From positions 13,705-77,704 of the forward strand of contig DASQGE010000014.1 of the NCBI GenBank assembly GCA_035632775.1: a stretch of 64,000 nt of DNA. Direction: 5' to 3'. This document shows, in pieces, positions 35,377-38,007 of this stretch; the first letter of the stretch is position 1, and every line of letters begins with the position of its first letter. Made by a program: the position numbers and the translations under genes. This DNA is from Solirubrobacteraceae bacterium. Lineage in GTDB: Bacteria; Actinomycetota; Thermoleophilia; Solirubrobacterales; Solirubrobacteraceae. Under the pieces are notes generated by a model that did not search any database, was not told where the DNA came from, and worked only from the letters and a program-made list of their open reading frames with translations.

Positions 35377-35392
35377 TTGACCAGTCAGTCAA
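35377..35392. promoter_or_regulatory. Palindromic operator TTGAC-N6-GTCAA between the divergent thiolase and 3-hydroxyacyl-CoA dehydrogenase
   Basis: TTGACCAGTCAGTCAA overlaps a TAGATT -10 candidate (35373-35378) and is 14/16 identical to 14901-14916. Confidence 0.65.
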
Positions 35393-35408
35393 CGGAGCTT
35401 CGAACCCG

Positions 35409-36203
35409 ATGAACGAGAGCCTCGCGATAGTCGGCAGCGGCGCGATCGCCTGCGGCCTTGCGGCGACCGCGGCCCACCACGGGCCGGTCCTGGTGCTCGC
35501 GCGCTCGGACAGCTCGGCCGAGCGGGCCAAGCAGGCGGTCGAGAAGACGCTCGACCGGCTGGGCGCCGAGATCGACCCGGAGCACGTGCAGGTCGTGACC
35601 GACCGGGACGCGCTCGCGGGCGCCGGCTTCGTGGTGGAGGCCGTGGTCGAGGACCACGACGTCAAGGCGAAGCTGCTGGGCGAGCTGGACGGCGTCCTGG
35701 AAGCGGAGGCGATCCTCGCGAGCACGACCTCGTCGCTGTCGATCGAGCGGCTCGCGCGAGCGAGCGGGCGCGAAGATCGTTTCGTCGGGCTGCACGTGTT
35801 CAACCCGGTGACGAAGATGAAGCTGGTCGAGCTGATCTTCCCGGCCGCAGCCACCGCCGAGACGCGCAGACGGGCGCTGGAGCTGTGCGAGACGTTCGAG
35901 AAGGTCCCCGTCGAAGTGCCCGACGTGCCCGGGTTCGTCGTCAACAGGCTGCTGTTCCCGTACCTGTTCGGAGCCGTGCGGCTGCTGGAAGAGACGGGCA
36001 TCGATCCGGCCAGCGTCGACACCTGCATGAAGCTCGGCGCGGGCCACCCGATGGGACCGCTCGCGCTGCTCGACCTCGTCGGCCTGGACGTGTCGAAGGC
36101 GATCGGCGAAACGATCGGCGAGCCCGTGCCCGATCGCCTCGAGCAGCTGATCGGCGAGGGCGCGCTCGGGCGCAAGAGCGGGCGCGGCTTCCACAGCTAC
36201 TGA
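35409..36203 (+). CDS. 3-hydroxyacyl-CoA dehydrogenase
   Basis: Motifs IVGSGAIACG, VVEAVVED..VK, ASTTSSLS, GLHVFNP, PGFVVNRLL and GHPMGPL.L.DLVGLD. Confidence 0.93.
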   Translation: MNESLAIVGSGAIACGLAATAAHHGPVLVLARSDSSAERAKQAVEKTLDRLGAEIDPEHVQVVTDRDALAGAGFVVEAVVEDHDVKAKLLGELDGVLEAEAILASTTSSLSIERLARASGREDRFVGLHVFNPVTKMKLVELIFPAAATAETRRRALELCETFEKVPVEVPDVPGFVVNRLLFPYLFGAVRLLEETGIDPASVDTCMKLGAGHPMGPLALLDLVGLDVSKAIGETIGEPVPDRLEQLIGEGALGRKSGRGFHSY

Positions 36204-36234
36204 CCGCAGCGCCGCCCGCCCGGTGGGCGAGGAC

Positions 36235-36379
36235 CGGCCGCCGCCGAGGAGCCGTCGCCGCCGAGGAGTCGTCGCCGCCGAAGAGCCGTCGCCACCGAAG
36301 AGCCGTCGCCACCGAAGAGTCGTCGCCGCCGAAGAGTCGTCGCCACCGAAGAGCCGTCGCCGCCGAAGAGCCGTCGCCG
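36235..36379. repeat. 17-bp tandem repeat (YCGTCGCCRCCGARGAG), about 8.5 copies
   Basis: Units start at 36252, 36269, 36286, 36303, 36320, 36337 and 36354, with a degenerate unit at 36235 and a partial one at 36371; no spacers. Confidence 0.95.
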
Positions 36380-36383
36380 AGTG

Positions 36384-36399
36384 TGTGACGTTTCTCACC
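36384..36399. promoter_or_regulatory. CRP/FNR-family-like site TGTGA-N6-TCAC(C)
   Basis: TGTGA CGTTTC TCACC is 9/10 of the CRP consensus and lies at the start of a 45% GC patch. Confidence 0.5.
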
Positions 36400-36459
36400 T
36401 GAGAATTTATGAACTCTGAGGTGACTTTTAGCTGGCATTCATCAACTTCGAGATACTCG

Positions 36460-36548
36460 TAACTGCGACACAGAGTCGCAATGCACACCCGCCTCCTCCC
36501 AGTGCGCACTGTCCGGCCCGCTCCCCCCGCGGGCCGGACGTGTTTTTT
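36460..36548 (+). ncRNA. Candidate C-rich small RNA (6C-like)
   Basis: Orphan AT-rich promoter-like region, hairpin TGCGAC/GTCGCA, CCCGCCTCCTCCC tract and a terminator hairpin with a TCCCCCC loop. No + strand CDS follows. The 5' end is a guess. Confidence 0.45.
36511..36548 (+). terminator. Intrinsic terminator
   Basis: GTCCGGCCCGC-TCCCCCC-GCGGGCCGGAC followed by GTGTTTTTT. Confidence 0.85.
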
Positions 36549-36669
36549 GGGGAGACAACCGCGCGGAGACCCCGCATATCGGTTGGTGTCGCCGGTCTCC
36601 CGACGGGCTGGCCGAGCAGAGAGCGCGCATCCGCCGATCCGGAGCGTAGGGCTGGCGACGAGGGGAGCT

Positions 36670-38007
36670 TCAGGACTCGGGCGAGGACTGAGCGCGATCG
36701 CTTTCGCGGCGCGGCGGCCGGCGGCCGGCGCGGATGCGGACCGCGTCTATGCGGTTGTCGCGCACGGACTCGACCCGGATCGAGAACCCGTCCGCATGGA
36801 CCGTGTCCCCACGCCTGGGCAGGCGGCCGAGCTCGGCGAACACGAAACCGCCGACCGAGTTGTACGCGTCGGAGTCGACCGGCAGGTGCAGGCCGTAGTC
36901 GGCGAGGTCGGTGATCGCGACGTGGCCGCGCACGAACCAGTCGCCGTTGGCCAGCTGCCTGACCTCGCCGGCGGCCGGGTCGGTCTCGTCGGCGATCTCG
37001 CCGACGACCTCCTCGACGATGTCCTCGACGGTGACGATCCCGACGACGCGCCCGTACTCGTCGACGACGACCGCCATCGAGGTGCGCTGGCGCTGCAGGT
37101 CGGCGAGCAGGTCGTCCAGCGGCTTGGTCTCGGGCACGATCGGCGCGTCGTGCACGATCGGCGCCACCGACGCGTGCGGCCCCTCGCGCATCAGCCGGTC
37201 CGCGAGCGCGCTCGCGTGCACGAGCCCGTGGACGCGGTCGCGGTTTTCGTCTTCGGTCACGATCAGCCGCGTGTGGCCTGAGGAGATGCACCGTTGCAGC
37301 GCGGTCTCGACGTCCTGGGAGCTGTCGACCGTGACCACGGCCGGAATCGGCGTCATCACCTGGCGCGCCTCCTGCTCGTGCAGGTGGAACACGCCCGTCA
37401 GCATGCCCGCCTCGCCGGGGTCGAGGTGTCCGCCGGCGTAGGACTCGGCGATCAGTCGCTTGAGCTCGTCCGGCGAACCGCCGCGGCGCTCGAAGCTGAT
37501 GTCGATCCCCATCAGCCCGAGAAGCCGTCCGGCGACGGCGGTCAGCGCGAGGATGAACGGGCGGAACAGCACGCTGAAGCCCTGCAGCGGCCTTGCGACC
37601 CGCCGCGCGACGACCTCGGCGCGATCGATGGCGTAGAACTTCGGCACCATCTCGCCGGCGATCAGCAGCGCGATCGTGATCAGCAGGAACGACACGGTCG
37701 CCGAGACGGCGACGGCCAGGCCGTGGCTGACGGTGTCGCCGAACACGCCTTTCAGGACGCTCGCGAGCGCGGGCTCGCCGAGCGCGCCGACGGCGATCGC
37801 GCTCATCGTCATCCCGATCTGGACGGCGGAGATGTACTCGTTGATGTTCCCGATCTGCTCGAGCGCGAGCCCGGCGCCGCGCGCGCCTTCCTCGCGCATG
37901 ACCTCCAGCCGCGACCGGCGGGAGCGCACGAGCGCGTACTCCGCGACCACGAAGAACGCGTTCACCCCGACCAGCACGGCCGTGAGGATGAGCTTGAGCC
38001 CGTTCAC
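36670..38007 (-). CDS. Hemolysin/CorC (CNNM + CBS pair + CorC_HlyC) family membrane protein
   Basis: Motifs [21 protein letters not shown]...[41 protein letters not shown] and SVGG. Confidence 0.93.

Follow-up and report, generated by a model that had tools for sequence, protein, structure and literature searches.

Small RNAs (sRNAs) that expose C-rich loops to Shine-Dalgarno (SD) sequences have been described in several bacterial groups. Among Actinomycetota, the 6C RNA (B11/ncRv13660c of Mycobacterium tuberculosis, scr3558 of Streptomyces coelicolor and 6C of Corynebacterium glutamicum) is ~85-95 nt long and is predicted to form three hairpins; its first loop varies, the other two are rich in C, and the last hairpin is the terminator. 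In M. tuberculosis, loops L2 and L3 of this 93-nt, three-loop RNA, both of them C-rich, pair with G-rich ribosome-binding sites, and many mRNAs are repressed without a chaperone (PMC6486639). The alphaproteobacterial cuckoo or alpha-r14 RNAs (NfeR1, RSs0680, SmelC397) are defined by two to four adjacent hairpins, each with CCUCCUCCC in its loop, a sequence described as an anti-SD motif (PMC4615179). In Firmicutes, the C-rich single-stranded loops of RsaE/RoxS and of RNAIII hairpins also occlude SD sequences (see the discussion in PMC4615179). The present analysis concerns a 64,000-nt stretch of a Solirubrobacteraceae genome (assembly GCA_035632775.1, contig DASQGE010000014.1, positions 13,705-77,704), referred to as the window, in which an earlier note based on the letters alone had proposed a C-rich sRNA between two convergent genes. 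The element at ~36465-36548 on the + strand is likely to be a stand-alone gene for a trans-acting sRNA of ~85 nt that is specific to Solirubrobacteraceae and has an anti-SD action.

The element was recognized as significant because of its comparison with relatives and not because of its motifs alone. The single motifs lie within chance (CCTCCTCCC, for example, occurs once in the window versus 1.3 expected), whereas the conservation in ~100 other genomes is beyond it. A 181-nt query covering 36380-36560 was single copy in its own genome. Of 36 genomes from the same genus, 35 gave a match, at 79-91% identity, and no credible match was found in other families of the order. The exact 23-mer core GCACACCYGCCTCCTCCCAGTGC was present in more than 120 of the genome records listed, nearly all of them metagenome-assembled genomes (MAGs) of Solirubrobacteraceae/Solirubrobacterales from soil. 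Of 201 Solirubrobacteraceae genomes searched with a covariance model built from 57 sequences (R1), 61 contained the element, and these represent 17 of the 37 genera; the model gave no match in genomes of the order outside this family. The conserved sequence amounts to ~120 nt in total. It begins at the GAGAATTTAT box and continues through TTTTAG, (A/G)TTCATC and GATACT to 6-8 variable bases and a near-invariant block, while the sequence directly 3' of the terminator hairpin and 5' of the boxes is unalignable among homologous loci. The spacers between the boxes vary in sequence and keep their length. As far as can be judged from sequence, a set of evenly kept boxes with invariant stems and variable loops behind it has the look of a promoter plus a structured RNA.

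The genomic arrangement is conserved as well. As the earlier note had read it, the gap containing the element (36204-36669) separates two convergent genes, a 3-hydroxyacyl-CoA dehydrogenase gene (3HCDH; 35409-36203, + strand; Pfam 3HCDH_N and 3HCDH) and a CNNM/CBS/CorC_HlyC transporter gene (CorC/CNNM; 36670-38007, - strand). The order 3HCDH(+), element(+), CorC(-) was found in 94 of 103 loci, with the element usually ~95-190 nt past the dehydrogenase stop, and it is kept in other genera though the flanking proteins there are only 56-77% identical. The same arrangement was also seen at L064 (CAVUCN010000012.1), labelled "uncultured Alphaproteobacteria"; this bin or contig is probably mislabelled.

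Extra copies of the element exist in some genomes of the genus, and three of them (oriented coordinates L194 1537-1630, L195 1499-1592 and L196 1499-1593; genomes G024 and G014) are flanked by neither 3HCDH nor CorC. The gene upstream of L194 and L196 is on the opposite strand (divergent). All three paralogs retain TTAG, TsAT and GATAMT at the same spacing along with all three hairpins described below, and their loop B is altered to CCUCCUCCU or CUCCUCCUCCU. In several weaker matches within the genus, including three paralogous copies, similarity to the window begins at 36464-36465 (query positions 85-86), i.e., 7-8 nt past GATACT. Another genus carries arrays of two to three sRNA copies in tandem (L168 1130-1583 in genome G137; also G477 and G521), which lie within ~450 bp downstream of the dehydrogenase gene and whose first copy is without the CCUCCUCCC motif. 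As the boxes and the RNA are kept together in copies at unrelated loci, the element is more than a 3' untranslated region (3' UTR). Promoter-like elements were found at a fixed distance from the conserved 5' end, together with an intrinsic terminator consisting of a hairpin and a U-run. By this comparison, the element is very probably an independent sRNA gene. The earlier view of an autonomous non-coding unit, not merely the dehydrogenase terminator, was thus borne out by the joint conservation of boxes and RNA and by its persistence in dehydrogenase-free paralogs.

Structure prediction for 36440-36550 gave the same three hairpins in the minimum free energy (MFE) and centroid folds (-45.1 kcal/mol, z = -4.85 versus shuffles). 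In 57 distinct sequences, 95% of the cells were paired, compared with 22-38% when the partners were slid. Hairpin A (GCGAC-ACAGA-GTCGC, 36465-36479, + strand) lies at the predicted start of the RNA (~36465), and an extra T-A closing pair extends it to 36464-36480. Its GCGA/UCGC stem is invariant, and its loop of 4-13 nt varies freely in length and sequence, the length changing by numbers of bases that are not multiples of 3. At the fifth pair, 40 of the 57 sequences have C-G and 4 have U-A, and in 13 the position is unpaired. Hairpin B (GCAC-ACCCGCCUCCUCCCA-GUGC, 36483-36505, + strand), present in both folds, has a stem of 4-5 bp and a loop of 15 nt, in which the C-rich tract CCCGCCTCCTCCC (36488-36500) contains the seed CCUCCUCCC at 36492-36500. 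Among paralogs and other genera, the stem takes the forms GCAC/GUGC, GUGC/GCAC, GCACA/UGUGC and AGCAC/GUGCU, always with CCUCCUCC in the loop. A stem enclosing this loop was found in 22 of 23 sequences, versus 14.7 +/- 2.1 with shuffled flanks.

Hairpin C (36507-36548, + strand) is the terminator. It consists of an outer CAC/GUG stem (36507-09 with 36540-42), an inner 11-bp stem (36511-21 with 36529-39), a UCCCCCC loop (36522-28) that presents CUCCCCCC, and U6 at 36543-48. The terminator scan (12 pairs, 10 of them G-C, then T6) identified it as the only terminator-like site in 35800-37200. Within the 57 sequences, 93-96% of its cells were paired; 3 sequences have a compensatory change from U-A to C-G at the base of the stem, and in 20 a C-G pair has become U-G. 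In many relatives, the U-run after hairpin C is short (UUUAA) or displaced behind a G-rich segment. The 6-bp hairpin at 36464-36480, the anti-SD-containing tract at 36488-36500, and the 11-bp hairpin at 36511-36539 with its TCCCCCC loop and the T6 run at 36543-36548 had all been pointed out in the earlier note and were recovered here.

A sub-clade (L020, L027, L028, L035 and L036) deviates at the 3' end. Here, hairpin C is followed by GCCUGGGAGG, and the U-run comes only after it; the seed is complementary to CCUGGGAGG, a G-rich stretch that resembles an SD sequence and has U7 after it. The window has the opposite order, with the U-run first and GGGGAG behind it at 36549-36554. On the evidence of the folding models, the CUGGGAGG segment of the sub-clade may be an alternative terminator, a regulatory mask, or both.

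Upstream of the RNA, the best conserved feature is the -10-like hexamer GATACT (36452-36457, + strand), which has A2 and T6 of the -10 hexamer and in which ATACT is invariant in 97 of 98 loci. It takes the form GATACT or GATAAT in paralogs and CATACT, CATGAT or CAAACT in other genera. GATACT is always located 6-8 nt before the first conserved base of the RNA, and its position predicts a start at ~G36465. Two further boxes, TTTTAG (36426-36431, + strand) and (A/G)TTCATC (36437-36443, + strand), lie 11 nt apart and 20 nt before the -10-like box. Among the 98 loci, TTTTAG varies hardly if at all, and the conservation of TTCATC is strong; the paralogs keep the two as TTAG and TsAT, and other genera have TTTAGG and TTGAG with the same spacing of 20-21 nt. 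The GAGAATTTAT box (36401-36410, + strand; ~-64 to -55) is conserved within the genus and partly across the 98 loci, and a similar TTTAT(C) box is found at equal distance in the paralogs. It could be an UP-like element or the site of a regulator. The core motifs TTTAT (36406-36410), TTTAG (36427-36431) and TTCAT (36438-36442) follow each other at spacings of 21 and 11 nt, kept in paralogs and other genera, and these spacings place them on one face of the helix. This layout resembles the direct repeats of response regulators or phased UP-like tracts. The upstream boxes probably bind an activator or a special sigma factor, as we infer from their arrangement. A matrix of the promoter boxes run over the whole genome scored only the locus itself, so that no regulon is visible. 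A Bacillus-type SigH promoter was also considered. Its spacing would fit, but each box agrees with the consensus at only 2-3 bases, and this assignment was left as unsupported.

The CRP/FNR-type site TGTGA-CGTTTC-TCACC is present at 36384-36399 (+ strand), where the earlier note had placed it. It matches TGTGA-N6-TCACA at 9 of 10 positions, and its centre is at ~-73.5 from the predicted start. Taken alone, TGTGA-N6-TCAC occurs once in the window, and at least one match was obtained in 14 of 100 shuffles. A CRP-like site (at least 8/10) at a fixed offset, with its centre 33-42 nt 5' of TTTTAG, was found in 16 of 98 distinct loci, versus 0.27 in shuffles. These sites span at least three sub-clades and differ in their spacers (CGTTTC, CATTCC, GGATCG, GGTAAA and TCAAAG), and a site kept with differing spacers is how a real operator would be expected to evolve. 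The sites fall at two offsets, and these differ by 6-7 nt, or over half a turn of the helix. The genome encodes a CRP-type regulator of 231 aa (L191 1033-1728; G000 contig C125), whose domains are cNMP_binding, HTH_Crp_2 and Crp; no other strong match to HTH_Crp_2 was found in the genome. Its recognition helix, SSRESASRFL, shows the R-E...R pattern by which E. coli CRP reads TGTGA. A CRP-type input to the predicted promoter in the sub-clade of the window is plausible from these sequences, somewhat short of being probable. Since the site is kept in only ~16% of the loci, CRP control would be lineage-specific at best and not a property of the whole family. The proposal of CRP-family control in the earlier note was only partly supported, by the fixed-offset site and the encoded regulator; ~84% of the loci are without a site. 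The inverted repeat TCACCT/AGGTGA (36395-36400 and 36419-36424), described there as imperfect, is present and is a perfect 6-bp repeat; it is not conserved in relatives, which speaks against a functional part for it.

An Rfam scan of the window region and of 15 homologous loci returned no family that reached its cut-off. The Rfam 6C model (RF01066), whose cut-off is 47 bits, gave 20.0 bits (E = 7.8); hairpin C, at the 3' end, was the sole part to align. Run over the whole genome, the same model found nothing over the cut-off. Its best genome match (34.8 bits; L038 1501-1561, minus strand; G000 contig C9:39122-39182) was rejected as probably due to chance, as it has no C-rich loops and lies in a leader/coding context just upstream of the SD-like GGAGAGGAGG. 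As a positive control, the model was run on a sample of 151 Actinomycetota genomes, where canonical 6C loci scoring 47.6-92 bits came up in only two families, both different from this one, and none above the cut-off was found in the Thermoleophilia of this sample. Conversely, R1 run with filters off on seven canonical 6C loci did not exceed 9.6 bits where 6C itself lies or 12 bits at any other place on these loci.

In design, the element resembles 6C in its phylum, its length, and in the expected Hfq-free pairing of C-rich loops with G-rich ribosome-binding sites (PMC6486639). The fold and the 57-sequence alignment are consistent with the ~90-nt three-loop plan of 6C, with a variable L1 and C-rich L2 and L3 (Mai et al. 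2019), the ends of the RNA being predicted. The C-rich, 6C-like design noticed earlier thus stood. The element differs from 6C in that only loop C has six Cs, where 6C would show two loops with at least six; the longest run of C in loop B (ACCCGCCUCCUCCCA) is three, and this loop carries CCUCCUCCC within 15 nt closed by 4-5 bp. It also differs in its 3HCDH/CorC neighbours, compared with ParA/Ssd-type genes at 6C, and in its restriction to a single Thermoleophilia family. Of the Rfam matches in the region, cuckoo/ar14 (RF02344) was the best, with 27.2 bits against a cut-off of 58.8 and E = 0.0094 for a 1.4-kb search, an E-value which, by estimate, would be far above 1 when scaled to the 2.4-Mb genome. 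The element shares with cuckoo RNAs the identical CCUCCUCCC loop motif and a row of hairpins with a terminator at its end; in both, some genomes carry several copies, tandem ones included, and a single conserved neighbourhood predominates (PMC4615179). However, CCUCCUCCC is present here in one hairpin only, the terminator loop having CUCCCCCC and hairpin A none, and cuckoo RNAs are alphaproteobacterial and Hfq-binding, whereas the element is actinobacterial and no Hfq was found. The likeness is best read as convergence. With RsaE/RoxS and RNAIII there is no similarity past the C-rich loops, the comparison of models being the Rfam scan, in which they gave no match. The element would thus work like 6C and cuckoo, is a member of neither by the tests run, and is a probable new family of the anti-SD/C-rich-loop kind, as the earlier note had allowed.

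The best reading from this analysis is that the RNA would be a trans-acting repressor of translation initiation on GGGAGG-type leaders. Transcription would start ~7 nt past the -10-like GATACT, from a promoter that would depend on TTTTAG and TTCATC, 11 nt apart, and on the TTTAT box two helical turns further up, with the CRP-type site at ~-73.5 as an added input in the sub-clade of the window. The transcript would consist of three parts, namely, a protective 5' hairpin, a 15-nt loop showing CCUCCUCCC, and a GC-rich terminator hairpin with the CUCCCCCC loop. The C-rich loops would pair with the G-rich SD regions (GGGAGG) of several mRNAs and thereby block ribosome binding. Mycobacterial 6C has been shown to act in this way, and the cuckoo/ar14 RNAs have been proposed to do so. 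The 3' end of the 16S rRNA of this genome is CACCUCCUU, and loop B shares its CCUCC core within a longer C-rich tract. Pairing would not require Hfq; no Hfq gene was found in the genome, and the control genomes were positive.

Several results weigh against this reading of the element as a trans-acting repressor. A sigma-70 promoter scan of the region called nothing, and the upstream boxes are unlike a -35 element. A genome search for a long complement to the loop B seed retrieved only the gene itself and no specific target. A duplex-energy scan of all candidate starts was dominated by in-frame noise in the absence of gene calls or mapped starts and was left unused. In other genera the stem of hairpin C is kept, but its loop is not always 6C (CCCCAG, CCAGU, GAUCA and similar). 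In the sub-clade with the displaced U-run, the predicted fold pairs the seed CCUCCCAG with the downstream CUGGGAGG in a rod of ~25 bp (~-59 kcal/mol), so that the seed may be masked there and only loop C exposed. Covariation is weak, with double changes in only 3 pairs and a covariation term of only -0.34 in RNAalifold; hairpin B is invariant within the genus, in part by construction, as most sequences were collected in a way that fixed it. Covariation is scarce because the sequence hardly varies. The comparison of homologous regions proposed in the earlier note thus yielded strong conservation but little covariation. The three-hairpin structure predicted by these models appears well supported by compatibility and only modestly by covariation.

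The conserved position of the element would also fit a mere 3' UTR or intrinsic terminator of the 3HCDH mRNA, giving at most a processed 3'-UTR RNA without a promoter of its own. The element is on the same strand and directly downstream of 3HCDH in 94 of 103 loci, it contains the sole terminator-like hairpin after that gene, and no canonical sigma-70 promoter was detected. However, a plain terminator does not need ~120 nt conserved with A/T-rich boxes at fixed spacing. The dehydrogenase-free paralogs keep both boxes and RNA, two of them behind a divergent upstream gene, and their similarity starts 7-8 nt past GATACT; in the window itself, a 141-bp tandem repeat separates gene and element and leaves the element undisturbed. 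We regard this explanation as very unlikely. A role in cis or at the level of DNA, as a buffer of convergent transcription, an antisense to CorC/CNNM or a protein-binding DNA site (e.g., for recombination or partition), appears extremely unlikely. It would agree with the single copy in this genome, the fixed position between convergent genes, and a conservation at the DNA level with little covariation. The minus strand, however, has no U-run after the hairpin, hence the element is not a bidirectional terminator. The CorC stop is 120 nt away across sequence that is not conserved, and paralogs and tandem arrays exist away from CorC. No XerCD- or ParB-like dyad was noticed in the A/T-rich part on reading the sequence, and variation of loop length with invariant stems is a signature of RNA.

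Descent from 6C (RF01066), with the element as a very diverged orthologue, would date 6C to the root of Actinomycetota. The phylum is the same, and the element shares with M. tuberculosis 6C the predicted three-hairpin plan of ~90 nt, in which the first loop varies and the other two are C-rich (PMC6486639). The 3' hairpin aligns to the 6C model, and the "slot" is free in that no canonical 6C was found in the genome or the class. Moreover, the canonical mycobacterial-type 6C locus L184 has CCGCCUCCUCCCC in its last hairpin and the same three-hairpin plan, and distant descent was kept as a rival because of this locus. Nevertheless, the scores are low in both directions (20 bits versus 47 for the Rfam model, at most 12 bits for R1 on the seven canonical loci), and the element has a single six-C loop, often not C-rich in other genera of the family. 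The synteny differs too: where the element has 3HCDH and CorC, the canonical locus L188 has a HAD hydrolase and a putative ATPase of the ParA/CbiA type, whose P-loop match to CbiA/ParA is weak (E ~1e-4, below Pfam cut-offs). Short C-rich hairpin RNAs also arise easily in GC-rich genomes, cuckoo having the same motif by convergence. Common descent is thus judged unlikely. A bolder combination would make the element the 6C counterpart of Thermoleophilia by descent, with a cuckoo-type CCUCCUCCC seed copying the 16S anti-SD, acting as a family-wide brake on translation initiation under response-regulator-like phased boxes, with cAMP-CRP in some lineages and with the sub-clade seed auto-masked by the SD mimic CUGGGAGG and therefore switchable; as a whole, this is distinctly unlikely. 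The reading as an independent, trans-acting sRNA gene is retained.

From left to right, the gap contains a 17-bp tandem repeat, a low-GC patch and the single terminator-like hairpin. The repeat (CGCCGCCGAAGAGCCGT, 8.3 units, 36239-36379, without assigned strand) was detected by Tandem Repeats Finder between the dehydrogenase stop and the sRNA promoter, and its period is not a multiple of 3. No second array was found elsewhere in the genome (assembly of 2.38 Mb in 159 contigs, 92% complete), and the array was absent from the ~100 homologous loci; it lies outside the conserved unit and is either a recent genome-specific insertion or expansion, or an assembly artefact. The GC content is 48-52% at 36350-36499 in 100-nt windows, versus ~70% in the surroundings and the genome; the low-GC patch described earlier is real, its value being slightly higher than the 45% then given. 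Three features are absent from the earlier note, namely, the tandem repeat, the boxes TTTTAG and GATACT, which are invariant, and a short hairpin closing around the CCUCCUCCC tract. Three coding possibilities were rejected. An open reading frame (ORF) on the + strand (36409-36462, 17 aa) and the ATG at 36481 as a start were dismissed because neither start codon is conserved in relatives. A minus-strand open frame (35385-36509) behind the SD-like GGGAGGAGG was dismissed because the loops differ in length by numbers of bases not divisible by 3 and because the same strand has no gene downstream.

Thermoleophilia are abundant soil actinobacteria, mostly uncultured, and we know of no riboregulation described in this class. 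The locus is a testable candidate whose ends, seed and promoter are predicted and for which over 100 natural variants exist, besides paralogs and tandem arrays. It places the exact cuckoo anti-SD motif outside Proteobacteria, joined to a 6C-type loop, and lends support to the idea that GC-rich genomes have repeatedly arrived at C-rich anti-SD loops as a solution that needs no chaperone. No concept is changed by it; as a candidate new Rfam family, the element would improve the annotation of MAGs from this lineage.

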